From a virus (lineage: Duplodnaviria > Heunggongvirae > Uroviricota > Caudoviricetes): 42,302 nucleotides of DNA. Below are positions 32,357 through 37,659 of the stretch, in pieces. How positions within the stretch are numbered: position 1 is the first letter of the stretch; every line of letters begins with the position of its first letter. Location of the stretch: IMG/VR virus record IMGVR_UViG_2713896905_000008, one strand, 5' to 3'. The notes beneath the pieces are model-generated. The model was not told where the DNA came from. It worked only from the letters and a program-made list of their open reading frames with translations, and searched no databases. A program made the translations under genes and the position numbers.

Positions 32357-32679
32357 ACTTTCAGGCCCCTCTCATGTAACCAGTGGGCTGCACGCAGCCT
32401 GGCGTTTTCCTCACCGGCAAGCAGTGAGCGGATAATCCCGGCCGCCTCGCTGTCGTCGTCCTTCACCGCGGTATGAAGAGTGATACCCCGGGCCACGCCA
32501 CGCTTTATCGTGATGACGCCTTTTTTCTCCAGTGCGCGAAGATGCTCCACCGCTGCATTCACTGAACGGTATCCCAGCATGGTTGCCACCTCCTGATTGG
32601 TTGGCGGAAAGCCACGCTCTTTCTGGTAAGAAATCAGCATATCCAGCACCTGCTGCTGGCATTGAGTTAACGTCGTCAT
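32353..32679 (-). CDS. LexA-like winged-helix DNA-binding protein (no peptidase domain)
   Basis: 108 aa; QQQVLDMLISYQKERGFPPTNQEVATMLGYRSVNAAVEHLRALEKKGVI parallels the LexA N-terminal domain. Confidence 0.55.
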   Translation of the reverse strand: MTTLTQCQQQVLDMLISYQKERGFPPTNQEVATMLGYRSVNAAVEHLRALEKKGVITIKRGVARGITLHTAVKDDDSEAAGIIRSLLAGEENARLRAAHWLHERGLKV

Positions 32680-33362
32680 GCCGCCATCTCCCTGACCAGT
32701 TTTTCTGCCTGCTGGCGAACCTGCGCCAGAAAGGCCTCACCACATGCCTCAAGTTCATCGCGCCCGATGTAGCTGATTGCCGCTCCCTTCCAGGTCTTAT
32801 CGAAAACAGCAATAGCACCAGCGAAGAACGCTCCTGTCGGCACCTGCTTCTCATCCTTCGGGATAAACCAGACAGGCAGTTCAAAACCAATACGCCCGCG
32901 AATAAAAGCAATATGGTCCGCATCTTCCGGCCACCACACTTCGCTGGTGGCAGCTTTGATCAGGAAAACATAGCGCCCGCCCTTATCACGCATGGAACTG
33001 GCATGTTTCATGATGTAACGCATGCCGGTGATGTATTGCCCCTCATGCTGACTGGCGCGGCTGTATGGGGGATTACCAAAGGCAGCACCTTTAAGCTCCG
33101 CAAGACGTTCTGACCAGTCATGCGCCAGCGCGTTATCTTCCGCCGTGTAATACGCGGCACATTTGGCGTTATCACCGTCAGTAAACAGATCCAGAACAAA
33201 CGGGCCAAACAGGGTGTTAATTCCCCAGAAAATGTTGTCCGGCGTGCGCCACTGATCGCCCACTTCCTTCAGTTCATGGGCTGGTTTGTTCCGCAGTTCC
33301 ACCAGCGCCTGGCAATATTTATTACTCATTAAGCCCCCACGTAATTCCCTGACAGATACCAC
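32676..33362 (-). CDS. phage DNA N6-adenine methyltransferase
   Basis: 228 aa with NPPY catalytic motif (AAFGNPPYSRA). Confidence 0.7.
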   Translation of the reverse strand: MVSVRELRGGLMSNKYCQALVELRNKPAHELKEVGDQWRTPDNIFWGINTLFGPFVLDLFTDGDNAKCAAYYTAEDNALAHDWSERLAELKGAAFGNPPYSRASQHEGQYITGMRYIMKHASSMRDKGGRYVFLIKAATSEVWWPEDADHIAFIRGRIGFELPVWFIPKDEKQVPTGAFFAGAIAVFDKTWKGAAISYIGRDELEACGEAFLAQVRQQAEKLVREMAA

Positions 33363-33823
33363 TCTTCACCCGATGCAGCGCGCTTGCTGCTTTTCCGTAA
33401 GCACCGCTCACGACGCGTCAGAAAATTGTTTCGTTCTGGCTGGGAGTGGCTTTCACGGAATGCCGCCATCCACACGGTTGCAGCACGACGGTATAAGCCC
33501 CTTGACTCCAGTTCTTCAGCCTGGCGGGTCAGGCACAAAATCACCCGGGGATCGTTAGTGCCGACATAGAAATTGCGCACAGGTCTGGTTTCTCGAACTG
33601 GTTGTGGTTCCGGTTCCTGCGCTCTCTCAGTCAGGCGCGGGAAATGTCTGCGTGTATCTCCTTCACAACGGTGAGCCACACGCCCACTCTGACGTAACTT
33701 GCTTGCTGACTGCAGAACGCGCTGCCGTGAGTAACCAGCAAAAGCATCCGCAATGTCTCCGGAAGTGCACCCCGGATGGGCTTCAATGAATTTCTGAACG
33801 TCATTTAACAGACTCATGATCAC
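33329..33823 (-). CDS. hypothetical phage protein
   Basis: 164-aa ORF between the replication and methyltransferase genes; Arg-rich. Confidence 0.35.
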   Translation of the reverse strand: MIMSLLNDVQKFIEAHPGCTSGDIADAFAGYSRQRVLQSASKLRQSGRVAHRCEGDTRRHFPRLTERAQEPEPQPVRETRPVRNFYVGTNDPRVILCLTRQAEELESRGLYRRAATVWMAAFRESHSQPERNNFLTRRERCLRKSSKRAASGEEWYLSGNYVGA

Positions 33824-34761
33824 CCCCTAAATCCTGCCGGGATCTGGCTGTAGTCCACGTTGTCGTAACTGGCTTTGAAGTACGGGTCTTCACGTTTTTC
33901 TGTGTGCGTGCTGACGGACGGCGATAAGCGCAGGGAAAGCTCATCCCATTTTTCCCGCAACTTCGACGGGCTGAGCACGTTACGGCACCAGAACGGATCG
34001 CGGCTGACGCGGCTGTACATCTCGCAGATTTGTTTGTGAGTACGACCATCCTGCACACACATCAGGCGAATTTCGTTTGCCCAGGCTGTCCAGTTAGGTT
34101 CTTTGGGACGAACCACCTCGCCGTCACATTCGGCGGCCTGCTCGTACAGGGCGATGATTTTTTTCCAGAGCCACTGTGCGCAGGTCAAATCATCCTGCGT
34201 CCCCCACTGGCGCTTTTTAGGGCTGAATACAACCGCATCAGGATGGCGAGTTAAAAAATCCTGTTCATCCGTCTGCGTGTCCGGTTGCGAAGCGTCCGGA
34301 CGAGAAGGTTTTTTATCTGACGGATCATGTTTTGATTTTACTGACGGATCCCCGCCAGATTCTGACGGGTGAAAACCCGCTTTTTTGCCAGATTTCGACG
34401 CATCAAATTTTGACGGGTCAGATTTTGATGCGTCAGATTTTGACGGGTCAGAATCTGACAGTTGAGAAAATGCCGCTGCCTGAAGCTTCGCAACGTTAAG
34501 CTGATAAACATTCGACGCATTGCGGTTACCCTGGCGACGCGCCTTACGCGTTAACCAGCCTTCTGCTTCCAGCCGTGCGATAGCCGTCCTGACGGTACTC
34601 ATCCCCGCGCCAATCTGACGGGCAATAGTTTCAATTGATGGCCAGCACACACCTTCGTCATTACTGAAATCAGCCAGGCGGGCCATAATTGCCACGCTGG
34701 ATAATTTCATGCCTGACGCTGCGCAACCATCCCATACATAGCCGGTTAATTTAGTGCTCAT
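33820..34761 (-). CDS. replication initiation protein (O-like) containing iterons
   Basis: 313 aa; N-terminal winged-helix-like region; central low-complexity SDSDPSKSDASKSDPSKFDASKS encoded by tandem DNA repeats. Confidence 0.6.
   Translation of the reverse strand: MSTKLTGYVWDGCAASGMKLSSVAIMARLADFSNDEGVCWPSIETIARQIGAGMSTVRTAIARLEAEGWLTRKARRQGNRNASNVYQLNVAKLQAAAFSQLSDSDPSKSDASKSDPSKFDASKSGKKAGFHPSESGGDPSVKSKHDPSDKKPSRPDASQPDTQTDEQDFLTRHPDAVVFSPKKRQWGTQDDLTCAQWLWKKIIALYEQAAECDGEVVRPKEPNWTAWANEIRLMCVQDGRTHKQICEMYSRVSRDPFWCRNVLSPSKLREKWDELSLRLSPSVSTHTEKREDPYFKASYDNVDYSQIPAGFRG
34356..34463. repeat. iteron array (candidate replication origin) inside the replication gene
   Basis: Six or more roughly 15-bp units of CAGATTTTGACGGGT type (CAGATTCTGACGGGT, CAGATTTCGACGCAT, CAAATTTTGACGGGT, CAGATTTTGATGCGT, CAGATTTTGACGGGT, CAGAATCTGACAGTT). 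Confidence 0.6.
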
Positions 34762-34770
34762 GACCGACCT

Positions 34771-35109
34771 CTATTTCCCTGAATTTACGACGAAACTGTT
34801 CGAGCGGGCTGAAGCACTCATGCTCATAGCCTTCACGGAGGTAGATAACCCGTTGTGTTTCCGGCTCCCAACGAATGACTCTGACGGGCACTCCGTAGTG
34901 ATCTTTGAACCAGCGGTTAACTTGTCGCAAAGGACTGTCTCCTTCTGCCGGTTGAAATCACCCACAGCCCACTCAGCAAAGCTGTGGGTTACAATTTCCC
35001 TGTCACCTGGTACATTCACTGCATAGCAATACTCCACCTTCGCTTTTCCACCCGGTACAGGAAGCGCAATCAGTTGCGAGCGACGGTAGTGTGTTGTTAA
35101 ACTGTTCAT
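34771..35109 (-). CDS. hypothetical early protein (YmfM-like by size and position)
   Basis: 112-aa ORF between the CII-like and replication genes. Its C-terminal third also reads plausibly in another frame, so the boundary is uncertain. Confidence 0.4.
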
Positions 35110-35696
35110 GCGTTAGTTTCTCCACAACCAGAAGCAATCGACGCCACGACGCCCGGAGCTGCACACTCGCGGGCGTCATTACTTTCTGAAATGCAAAAAA
35201 TTTTGTAGACAAGTGCTGCATGCTCCTGCAGCTTCGAAATTGAGAGGTACAGCTCGTCGTTAATTGCTGTCTTCTCATGCGGTTCCACTACACCGTCTTC
35301 GATTGCTGAACGAATCTGTTTTGAATAACTGCCGATCTGTTCAATGACTTCCAGCAGACGCTGGTTAATATCGGCGTTGTCCACATCCTCGACGTCAGGA
35401 AGAGACACAAAGACGCCATTTGCAGACTGCGCCACAGCGTCAGCAATGAAGTGAGTGCCACCAGCACGTTGTAAAATCATTGCCCATCCCAGCGGGAAAA
35501 TTTGATCGCCATCGGCACGAAGGCGATTAAATAATGCGTTCTCTGTTACATCCAGCCAGTCAGCTGCTTCAGCGTAACCCCCCGGCAACGCTGCGATAGT
35601 TTTTCTGACAGCTTTCACGTACCACTTAGGCTGTTTTTCTACTTTCCAGTGATGCTTACCCACGGCTATCTCCTTAAAACTGTGGTTACTTTTCAT
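35106..35696 (-). CDS. early regulatory protein (YmfL/CII-like, putative)
   Basis: ORF-track span 35106-35768; likely start at MKSNHSFKE. Second gene of the rightward early operon after cro. Confidence 0.45.
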
Positions 35697-35934
35697 CTGA
35701 TGAATCTTTAATCTTTTGAAAAATATCTGGACGTAATTTTTCTTTTGATATGCCAGTGGTCTTTTCAATGAATATCGAGAGCTTTGCAGGGGGACGCTTT
35801 TCTCTGTTCAACCAGTTCCAGACATGTTGTTGCTTTACTAAATGACCGCTGCTGGCTGTGAGCTTCCGAGCCAATTCTGATTGACCACCAGCCAGAGCGA
35901 TTGCCTCCGATAAGGCTAATTGCTCAGGTGTCAT
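35686..35934 (-). CDS. Cro-like repressor (YdaS-type HTH)
   Basis: 82 aa; helix-turn-helix LSEAIALAGGQSELARKLTASSGHLVKQ; divergent from the CI-like gene across the operator region. Confidence 0.7.
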   Translation of the reverse strand: MTPEQLALSEAIALAGGQSELARKLTASSGHLVKQQHVWNWLNREKRPPAKLSIFIEKTTGISKEKLRPDIFQKIKDSSDEK

Positions 35935-36069: not shown

Positions 36070-36756
36070 GTGAAAACACTGGCAGAACGATTAAAGATAG
36101 GTAGAGAGAAAGCTGGCATGAGCCAAGCTCAACTAGCTGAAAAAATTGGACTTTCACAACAATCTGTAGCCAAAATAGAGAATGGCGAAACTCTACAACC
36201 GCGCAAAATTAAAGAAATTGCAAAAGTTTTAGGTGTATCACAAAAGTGGTTACAACTTGGTATTGAAGACAACGCATCCATACCTGATCTTGTTGTAAAA
36301 GAAGCAGAAAGCACCGCATTAGACCCCGATATTTTCGTAAACATTCCTGTTTTAGATGTCGAGTTATCGGCAGGTAACGGATGTCTGGCTGAAATAGTTG
36401 AATCAGCTATTGACTGGTTTCCGTTAAGAAGAGCAGATTTGAGAAAATCTGGCGTATGTGCATCTAATGCCAAGATCGTAAAAATATGGGGGAACAGTTT
36501 ATTACCGGTTCTCAATAATGGAGATCTTGTTGCCGTTGATATTTCTCAAACCATTCCTATTCGTGATGGCGATCTTTATGCCGTACGAGATGGTGTATTG
36601 CTAAGGGTTAAAATACTTATCAACTTACCTGACGGTGGCTTGATTCTTAGAAGCTTCAACAAAGATGAGTACCCAGATGAAATACTCACCTTTGAAGATA
36701 GACGAGCCAGAATTCATGTTATAGGTAGGGTATTCTGGTCATCGCGAACTTGGTAA
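36070..36756 (+). CDS. CI-like prophage repressor (HTH plus LexA/S24 peptidase-like domain)
   Basis: 228 aa; N-terminal HTH MSQAQLAEKIGLSQQSVAKIENG; C-terminal S24-like region (IWGNSLLPVLNNGDLVAVD). Probable GTG start. Confidence 0.8.
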   Translation: MKTLAERLKIGREKAGMSQAQLAEKIGLSQQSVAKIENGETLQPRKIKEIAKVLGVSQKWLQLGIEDNASIPDLVVKEAESTALDPDIFVNIPVLDVELSAGNGCLAEIVESAIDWFPLRRADLRKSGVCASNAKIVKIWGNSLLPVLNNGDLVAVDISQTIPIRDGDLYAVRDGVLLRVKILINLPDGGLILRSFNKDEYPDEILTFEDRRARIHVIGRVFWSSRTW

Positions 36757-37659
36757 TGCATCGAAAAGCATTTCTTCAGAAATAATTTTAAGTTTTGCAC
36801 CATTATCATCCCTATAAGATATAGCTTTTTCGATCTTCCTTCCGTGACTTGAGAATTTCCAATCACGGGAGGAAAGCGTCCCAATTACTAAAAAATCCAA
36901 CTTTTGAGTAATTCCACTACTGATGTTCCCACCAGCATTTTTAATCAAATTTTCAACTACGGCTCTCTTTCCTGCAACAAAAGTGCCTGTAAGACAATAG
37001 GTTTTACCCTCTAACTCTATCGAAGCCCCTACATCAATAGGCAGCCTGGTCGCCAAACCATCCACCACCCCACTTTCCAAGTCACATCCTGTGAAGTCTA
37101 CTAATGCCTTATGTAGAGTTAAACTCTCATCTTCAGTAATAACCCCATCTTTAAGAATTTCCTTTACAAGTGCATAAAGTTTTTTTCCTGGGTAGTTGTT
37201 CTTCAAAGCTCCATTTTGCTCAAGCCACCAATTAAGATATCTTATTTCTTCTTGAGTTAAGTTCCGATCAGCAATTAATCCTTTACATAGTCCATTAAGT
37301 AAATGGACATCTACATCCTTGGAGTAAAAATCAATTTCAGGGATATCAAGAATTTCCCTCTGTATTTGGAGAAGGCTATTTTTAAGGTCATCACGTTCTT
37401 CTGATGTGATTATTCCATCCGCAAGAATATCCGACACCCGTGCTGATAGACTTTTTATAACTCCATTATTGATAATCTGCTTTGCTTCAAGTAACCATGT
37501 ATCTAAGTAAAGAACCTCCTCTTCACGGACAACTCCATCTGCAATGATTCCATCAATGATGCTAATCAAGTTAGCAAATAACTTGTCCCGGTTCTGTGTG
37601 TAATTAAAAGCGTAAAGCGCGTCTTCCATACAACCTCCTTTTTTTGATAATCCTTGCAC
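36739..37659 (-). CDS. BRCT-domain protein with four N-terminal ~35-aa repeats, unknown function (cargo at rexAB-equivalent position)
   Basis: C-terminus LEGKTYCLTGTFVAGKRAVVENLIKNAGGNISSGITQKLDFLVIG...KLKIISEEMLFDAL parallels the LigA-type BRCT fold. N-terminal repeats each contain ..ADG.IT.EE...L.. A+T-rich; convergent with cI. Confidence 0.55.
   Translation of the reverse strand: MQGLSKKGGCMEDALYAFNYTQNRDKLFANLISIIDGIIADGVVREEEVLYLDTWLLEAKQIINNGVIKSLSARVSDILADGIITSEERDDLKNSLLQIQREILDIPEIDFYSKDVDVHLLNGLCKGLIADRNLTQEEIRYLNWWLEQNGALKNNYPGKKLYALVKEILKDGVITEDESLTLHKALVDFTGCDLESGVVDGLATRLPIDVGASIELEGKTYCLTGTFVAGKRAVVENLIKNAGGNISSGITQKLDFLVIGTLSSRDWKFSSHGRKIEKAISYRDDNGAKLKIISEEMLFDALPSSR

Follow-up and report, generated by a model that had tools for sequence, protein, structure and literature searches.

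The replication origin of lambdoid phages lies, as a textbook rule, inside the gene for the initiator protein, and dimers of lambda O read palindromic iterons. In lambda and the Shiga toxin (Stx) phages, the origin is found in the middle of gene O and comprises four or six iterons and an AT-rich tract; lambda O acts as dimers (PMC7466680). In the lambda record, the four ori iterons are at nucleotides (nt) 349–433 of gene O, and an A-rich tract and recombination points follow. The current study concerns a 42,302 bp stretch of viral DNA (IMG/VR record IMGVR_UViG_2713896905_000008; hereafter the window), which on its sequence is an SfII/SfIV-type lambdoid phage or prophage, and an array of 15 bp repeats within its O-like replication initiator gene (33820–34761, − strand; 313 amino acids, aa). 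The region 34306–34461 is probably the cis-acting replication origin of this prophage, placed within the linker-coding part of its own initiator gene. Comparison with relatives indicates that the element and the N-terminal winged-helix domain of the initiator are inherited together as a module, independently of the C-terminal domain and of the neighbouring genes.

The iteron array and the A-rich boxes

The product of the initiator gene begins with a winged-helix domain, continues with a linker encoded by the repeats and a lambda-O-like C-terminal domain, and finishes in a DnaT-like tail. The initial annotation had placed six or more tandem repeats of about 15 bp inside the coding sequence, where they would encode a low-complexity segment. 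The location within the open reading frame (ORF) is borne out: repeat-finder, consensus and dyad searches identify five in-phase tandem iterons at 34387–34461 (− strand), which encode LSDSD-PSKSD-ASKSD-PSKFD-ASKSG (aa 101–125). On the coding strand these are, in order, I1 (34461–34447, CTGTCAGATTCTGAC), I2 (34446–34432, CCGTCAAAATCTGAC), I3 (34431–34417, GCATCAAAATCTGAC), I4 (34416–34402, CCGTCAAAATTTGAT) and I5 (34401–34387, GCGTCGAAATCTGGC). The number needs amendment: only five units are strictly tandem, a sixth stands apart and two more elements are half-copies. Tandem Repeats Finder reports the array at 34389–34452 (period 15, 4.3 copies, 81% matches) with the consensus CAGATTTTGACGGGT, which is the unit given in the initial annotation; at period 30 the array scores 100, the top of the 10 rows for the window.

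Each tandem iteron consists of a free 3 nt spacer codon followed by a 12 nt core, TCA-AAA-TCT-GAC, which holds an 11 bp dyad, TCARA-W-TYTGA, with the half-site TCARA. The conserved core reads T-C-A-(A/G)-A-(A/T)-T-(C/T)-T-G-A, and perfect 5-1-5 palindromes are present in iteron 4 (TCAAAATTTGA) and iteron 1 (TCAGATTCTGA). An 18 bp spacer (AAAAAAGCGGGTTTTCAC; 34369–34386, − strand) leads from the tandem array to iteron 6 (CCGTCAGAATCTGGC; 34354–34368, − strand), which has two mismatches to the consensus and whose core agrees at 10 of 11 positions with that of iteron 1 when the latter is reverse-complemented. In relatives the spacer is variable except for its TTT-SAC end, and iteron 6 is nearly invariant (synonymous diversity 0–0.26 in codon columns −4 to 0 around the GGDPS anchor). 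A terminator-like hairpin (CGGGTGAAAACCCG plus a T-run; 34366–34379, + strand), antisense to the initiator gene, is also seen in the spacer between iterons 5 and 6; its stem is not kept in most relatives.

The array is beyond chance. A search with the consensus CCGTCAAAATCTGAC at up to three mismatches gives eight matches (six sites) in the window, all within 34352–34461, against a chance level of 1.24 ± 1.02 per window, and none of 100 shuffles reaches eight. The dyad TCARAWTYTGA has four exact matches in the window, all in the array, where 0.12 would be expected.

Immediately beyond iteron 6 are two boxes spaced at 24 bp (34306–34353, − strand), GGGGATCCGTCAGTAAAATCAAAA at 34353–34330 and CATGATCCGTCAGATAAAAAACCT at 34329–34306. 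These are the two half-copies, GATCCGTCAG plus an A-run: each contains a Dam site (GATC), then an iteron half-site (CCGTCAG), then an A-rich run. The motif GATCCRTCAG is found in the window only within the boxes. They include the lowest-GC stretch of the initiator gene, and its least stable 40-mer is at 34303–34342 (GC 0.27–0.33; dG −47 versus a window mean of −55 ± 5). An A/T-rich tract is therefore present immediately downstream of the iterons, if weakly so, and the boxes are a candidate unwinding region. The repeats occupy nt 301–408 of the 942 nt gene, and the boxes reach nt 456.

Constraint on the DNA and linkage to the N-terminal domain

A protein search with the 98 aa N-terminal domain (N-domain) returned mostly truncated, frame-shifted or fused fragments, and was used to seed a genome scan of one genome per species. 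This gave 76 loci with the same N-domain, from Shigella to Providencia, Proteus, Yersinia, Erwinia and Pantoea (60–100% amino acid identity), all of which keep an SD-x-SK-type linker. Codon tests were applied to 63 non-redundant loci, with synonymous codon diversity scored at columns in which the amino acid is conserved. In the N-domain, synonymous diversity is saturated (mean 0.57, 61 columns), whereas in the segment around iteron 6 and the boxes the mean is 0.106 and the median 0 (14 columns; Mann–Whitney p = 1.5e-7). Within this anchored segment the codons GAT (63/63), GTA (62/62 Val), TCT (60/62), TTT (61/61) and CCG (60/63) are fixed or almost so. A GGN codon between the boxes serves as an internal control, with a synonymous diversity of 0.60, and the first codon of the tandem units is free, with all four Ala codons and Pro, Thr, Gly and Leu codons represented. 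This suggests that the segment is as old as the N-domain.

Codon usage, counted independently of how units were picked, gives the same picture. AAA accounts for 98% of Lys codons in the linker (60% in the N-domain, 63% in the C-terminal domain), TCA and TCT together for 84% of Ser codons (19% and 32%), and GTA for 73% of Val codons (17% and 10%). The 63 loci hold 335 units, three to 10 per locus with a mode of five, and the spacing between units is exactly five codons (15 bp) in 269 of 272 cases. The core is conserved at third codon positions as well, so that 12 positions per unit are constrained and three are free; this per-position matrix is partly circular, since units were chosen by core similarity, but the codon-usage and anchored-column tests are not. 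Together, these comparisons indicate that, across the Enterobacterales, purifying selection acts on the cores and boxes at the nucleotide level, including their synonymous sites. Near-frozen synonymous sites beside freely varying spacer codons point to a DNA-level element rather than a mere protein linker.

Some relatives show variations on the array. In one Providencia sp. locus (L067, 2501–3025), 10 iteron units derive from a 45 bp (three-unit) higher-order duplication, and in the Providencia/Proteus group GTY replaces GAC at the end of many cores. The GATC sites of the boxes (34323–34326 and 34347–34350, 24 bp apart) are conserved in nearly all 63 relatives. The phage has its own Dam methylase gene (32676–33362, − strand) two genes downstream of the initiator, and in 18 related loci a Dam gene is immediately downstream. 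The conserved GATC sites and the phage Dam could point to control of the origin by methylation. A set of frame-shifted 140 aa variants among the database proteins (P0001, P0004, P0007, P0031 and P0040) ends in …AGIRQ*, at a TAA inside GTCAGTAAA of box B. The shifts are at homopolymer runs (T4, A6, G7), and these variants are probably sequencing errors or pseudogenes.

Comparison of megablast query ranges (1–500 for phage mEp460 and 464–941 for Citrobacter phage phiNP) and of the sequences places a mosaic junction zone just distal to the proposed origin, at 34283–34320 (− strand). Here homology to mEp460 begins and homology to phiNP stops, and both junctions are just past the boxes. The phiNP initiator shares the N-domain (83% nt identity) and the same repeats (in blocks of 44–45 identical nt) and has another C-terminal domain. 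The mEp460 initiator (LR595868, 'Primosomal protein I') has the same C-terminal domain and tail, with 95.8% nt identity in the distal 500 nt of the gene, and the same gene neighbourhood, but its N-domain is unrelated. At the same position it carries 5.4 copies of an unrelated repeat of about 23 bp (core GGTCAAAATG), followed by an AT-rich run. The mEp460 gene is thus a natural domain-swap control.

The same pattern is seen among the 62 complete loci with this N-domain and iterons. The C-terminal domain is TIGR02220-like in 49 and lambda-O-like in 12, as assigned by comparison with reference domains (single-linkage clustering had merged all of them), and 13 different gene clusters are found downstream. 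Since these partners vary, only the N-domain accompanies the repeats throughout. The presumed recognition helix STVRTAI (aa 55–61) is essentially invariant in the 63 loci that keep the iteron core, from which we infer that it is the reader of the iterons. The only relative with a changed helix (STVITAI), Trabulsiella odontotermitis (L074, 2501–2962), also has changed cores (TCAGATTCCGAA / TCAGATTTTGAA), and may represent a single case of co-variation between protein and site.

More distant initiators extend the linkage. That of phiP27 (62% identity, the same STVRTAI helix) keeps 15 bp CCGTCAAAATC repeats, and those of Min27, Klebsiella phage RAH1 and Vibrio D75 (39–45% identity, different helices) each have their own 24 bp repeats directly after the domain, at nt 263–355. 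In every initiator type examined, repeats are found at the same position in the gene. In many database proteins (P0045, P0062, P0063, P0074, P0107 and others) and two loci (L071 and L078), the N-domain continues to about aa 78–79 (…RRQGN) and is then fused to unrelated sequence, including RusA (39 contigs) and a tail-fibre-like Gly-rich sequence, among others. Such fusions suggest that deletions or rearrangements starting just before the origin have recurred in cryptic prophages.

Proposed mechanism and alternative functions

If 34306–34461 is an origin, initiator dimers would use their N-terminal winged helices to bind the six iteron dyads, forming an O-some-like complex that would strain and open the adjacent A-rich/GATC boxes. 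The C-terminal domain and the DnaT-like tail would then recruit the host machinery that loads DnaB; a host route would be needed, as the phage itself lacks genes for P, DnaC and DnaB. The dyad symmetry of the core would fit reading by a dimeric winged-helix protein. The five-codon period means that the array can grow or shrink, as its three to 10 copies in relatives illustrate, without loss of frame. The proposal in the initial annotation that the array marks the likely origin gains support from the synonymous constraint, the co-segregation with the N-domain and the position shared with lambda.

A number of observations weigh against an origin at this site. The 15 bp period places neighbouring sites on different faces of the helix, unlike the spacing of about two turns in lambda. 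The A-rich region is moderately unstable, in that 7% of the 40-mers in the window are equally or more unstable. A helicase loader was not found in the window: tblastn with lambda P, RAH1 P, Min27 P and the phiP27 DnaC-like protein gave no match, and no P-, DnaC- or DnaB-type gene was found, which leaves the step after melting unexplained. The genome papers of phages SfIV, SfI and SfII make no mention of an origin. In addition, 34300–34470 (− strand) is predicted to fold as RNA at −53.2 kcal/mol (z = −5.5 versus shuffles). Finally, conservation of this kind speaks for a function of the DNA, not for one function in particular.

The last point bears on what is the serious residual rival, if an improbable one: the array binds the N-domain, but for autoregulation (as a transcript roadblock), for copy control by titration or handcuffing, or for exclusion of related phages, and the origin is elsewhere. 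The comparative data argue for DNA constraint and linkage to the N-domain, not for initiation as such, and the modest instability of the A-rich region would be compatible with a regulatory array. Ectopic lambda ori fragments are themselves reported to inhibit rep-lambda phages (PMC3349717, PMC4488673). However, there is no other motif cluster in the 42 kb window; the position, the order of iterons and A-rich tract, and the module boundaries match those of oriLambda; and repeats at this place are common to all of the initiator types examined. The position, the order and the lack of another motif cluster favour an origin.

It is very unlikely that the conserved sequence acts instead as RNA, with a structured initiator mRNA that controls translation (for example, by pausing between domains) or mRNA stability. 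The predicted RNA fold noted above, the folding of the DNA strand (z = −4.1) and the strong bias to particular linker codons would suit such a function. In 24 gap-free loci, however, the predicted structure is 84.3% paired. Column shuffles give 84.6%, with 423 of 500 reaching or exceeding the real value; covariation scores 0.050, versus 0.055 in shuffles, and pairing is usually lost at varying columns. This suggests that the RNA fold is a by-product of the dyad-symmetric repeats. Codon choice is also position-specific (TCA versus TCT and GAT versus GAC at fixed places) rather than a general rare-codon effect, and no Rfam family scores above threshold. A match to Rfam mir-5880 at 34386–34460 (30.7 bits versus a gathering score of 97) was rejected as spurious, being caused by the palindromic repeats.

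Slightly less likely again is a low-complexity protein linker (SD-x-SK) that was generated by slippage and has no function as DNA. The five-codon unit does encode a Ser/Asp/Lys-rich peptide, its copy number ranges from three to 10, and a low-confidence AlphaFold2 model of aa 1–161 (nine-sequence alignment; mean predicted local distance difference test score, pLDDT, of 48) has no secondary structure past aa 104. A linker of this kind would not account for cores and boxes that are near-invariant at synonymous sites while the N-domain is saturated and the adjacent spacer codons are free. Nor would it account for unrelated N-domains carrying unrelated repeats at the same place, which encode quite different peptides. 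A second gene overlapping the array in another frame is hardly credible as the source of the constraint: although ORFs at 34332–34499 (+ strand, 55 aa) and 34338–34520 (− strand, 60 aa) cover the array mechanically, none of the alternative frames stays open throughout the 63 loci (sense +1 and +2, 0/63 each; antisense 0, 28 and 34 of 63), and variable positions come as contiguous triplets instead of following a shifted third-position pattern.

The initiator, proposed helicase recruitment and comparison with described origins

The identification of the gene as a replication initiator, also made in the initial annotation, is upheld by several lines of evidence. PHROG 391 ('replication initiation O-like') matches the protein over its full length (E 1.4e-135, aa 1–313 versus profile positions 1–298), and the gene has 98.9% nt identity with the 'O protein family protein' gene of Shigella phage SfII and 98.8% with that of SfIV. 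The N-domain coding part, with the presumed recognition helix, is at 34468–34761 (− strand). Here Pfam HTH_36 matches aa 23–70 (E 4.3e-11), with further matches to GntR, MarR and DnaD_N; the Pfam matches of the protein also include HTH_29, PaaX and RP-C but not Phage_rep_O, and a PDB sequence search gave weak MarR-type winged-helix matches only. The lambda-O-like C-terminal domain (about aa 166–280) is encoded at 33922–34266 (− strand) and corresponds to lambda O aa 177–270. BLASTP against lambda O (E 8e-26, 31% identity over aa 70–277) detects no N-terminal similarity, and tblastn of lambda O against the window gives a match at 34554–33931. The homology of the C-terminal domain indicates that the initiator is of lambda O type.

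The gene neighbourhood is a standard early region. It runs from cI (36070–36756, + strand) through cro, a CII-like gene (35106–35768) and a small ORF to the initiator gene, beyond which are genes for a PerC-like regulator (33329–33823), the Dam methylase, a protein with a LexA DNA-binding domain (LexA-DBD) and RusA. No sigma-70-like promoter was found in 33700–35200. The product of the PerC-like gene (− strand, 164 aa) combines a MarR-like part at the N-terminus with a C-terminal domain of PerC/ANR type (PHROG 'transcriptional activator'); the gene occupies the place of lambda P, and is the commonest gene downstream of related initiators (25/62). A 306 aa ORF at 36739–37659 (− strand) is directly beside cI and overlaps its end.

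The last nine initiator codons (33823–33849, − strand) encode SQIPAGFRG, which matches the extreme C-terminus of Escherichia coli DnaT (SQIPPGFRG) at eight of nine positions. Among 62 related initiators, 39 finish in a GFR[GSTA] tail, whichever type of C-terminal domain they have. The tail is absent where a loader gene follows, as in phiP27, RAH1, Min27, lambda and one related locus (L049, with a DnaC-like Walker motif); another locus (L039) also lacks it and has a tail in common with RAH1. A tentative and rather doubtful proposal is that O-like initiators without P use a tail copying DnaT (…IPxGFRG) to plug the opened origin into the host DnaT/DnaC–DnaB route, with firing possibly also gated by the phage Dam through the two conserved GATC sites. 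The tail as a helicase recruiter may be taken as a lead only. Recruitment of DnaB/DnaC by DnaT is itself unresolved (PMC13377028), and the binding partner of the last residues of DnaT is unstated in reviews and in a 2026 preprimosome structure paper. If the proposal is true, a DnaT-mimic tail would give lambdoid origins a separate means of capturing the host helicase, and the comparative data point to the question of how helicase is recruited in phages without P.

An origin within the initiator gene is the expected arrangement for a lambdoid phage but is unannotated for this family of N-domain and iterons, of which no description was found in the accessible literature, including searches with motif strings and for 'initiator-solo' modules. 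Among 5426 complete E. coli genomes, 1950 carry the 191 bp origin segment, which is always annotated just as part of a 'helix-turn-helix domain-containing protein', and the module is also found in the serotype-converting Shigella phages SfII and SfIV. Once recognised, such an origin would provide a defined cis element for mini-replicons, and would help to predict replication incompatibility or interference between prophages and to read deletions in cryptic prophages. It would also warn against supposedly harmless synonymous recoding of the initiator gene. The comparative data also illustrate cleanly, from natural variation, how a DNA-binding domain travels with its sites as a single module.

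Repeated sites for a winged-helix initiator beside an A/T-rich unwinding region are also characteristic of iteron plasmid origins (RepA/RepE/pi class) and of P1 oriR, and GATC is found in the unwinding regions of P1 oriR and oriC. These replicons have their origin outside the rep gene; their iterons are 17–22 bp direct repeats to which monomers bind, and DnaA boxes are usual. In the window, however, the array is inside the gene, the RP-C match of the initiator is below threshold (17.2 bits versus a cutoff of 24.4), and there is no DnaA box in or beside the array, the sole one-mismatch match in 33500–35200 being at 35118, about 650 bp away.

Closer counterparts are the initiators phiP27 L17 (NC_003356), Min27 O, Klebsiella RAH1 O and that of Vibrio D75, in which, as here, an HTH_36 N-domain is followed by a repeat array. 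In phiP27, the 15 bp repeats are accompanied, again as here, by a 24 bp GATCC repeat, while the more distant HTH_36 initiators have different 24 bp repeats. Those of phiP27, Min27 and RAH1 differ from the window in that the next gene is annotated as a loader (DnaC-like in phiP27, replication protein P in Min27 and RAH1) and the GFRG tail is absent.

The closest described origins in layout are oriLambda and the six-iteron origins of the Stx phages 933W and P27, which are also located between the parts of the gene coding for the DNA-binding and C-terminal domains (PMC7466680). The P27 of that paper has a lambda-like O and is distinct from the phiP27 L17 relative described above. As in oriLambda, several dyad-symmetric repeats precede an A/T-rich tract in the direction of transcription; recombination junctions are found just after the origin; and iteron number varies between relatives. 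In contrast, the iterons here are 11 bp dyads at a strict 15 bp period, compared with lambda-type sites of 18–19 bp about 20–24 bp apart. The N-domain is HTH_36 rather than Phage_rep_O, a P gene is present in lambda and not in the window, and the DnaT-like C-terminal tail and the conserved GATC sites in the A-rich boxes also differ from the lambda system. Strict membership of the lambda O/P system fails on two defining features, as the N-domain family differs and P was not found. The parallel that the initial annotation drew with the iterons of lambda gene O does not extend to these two features but holds for position (nt 301–408 versus 349–433) and for the homologous C-terminal domain, so that it is right in architecture and partly right in homology.

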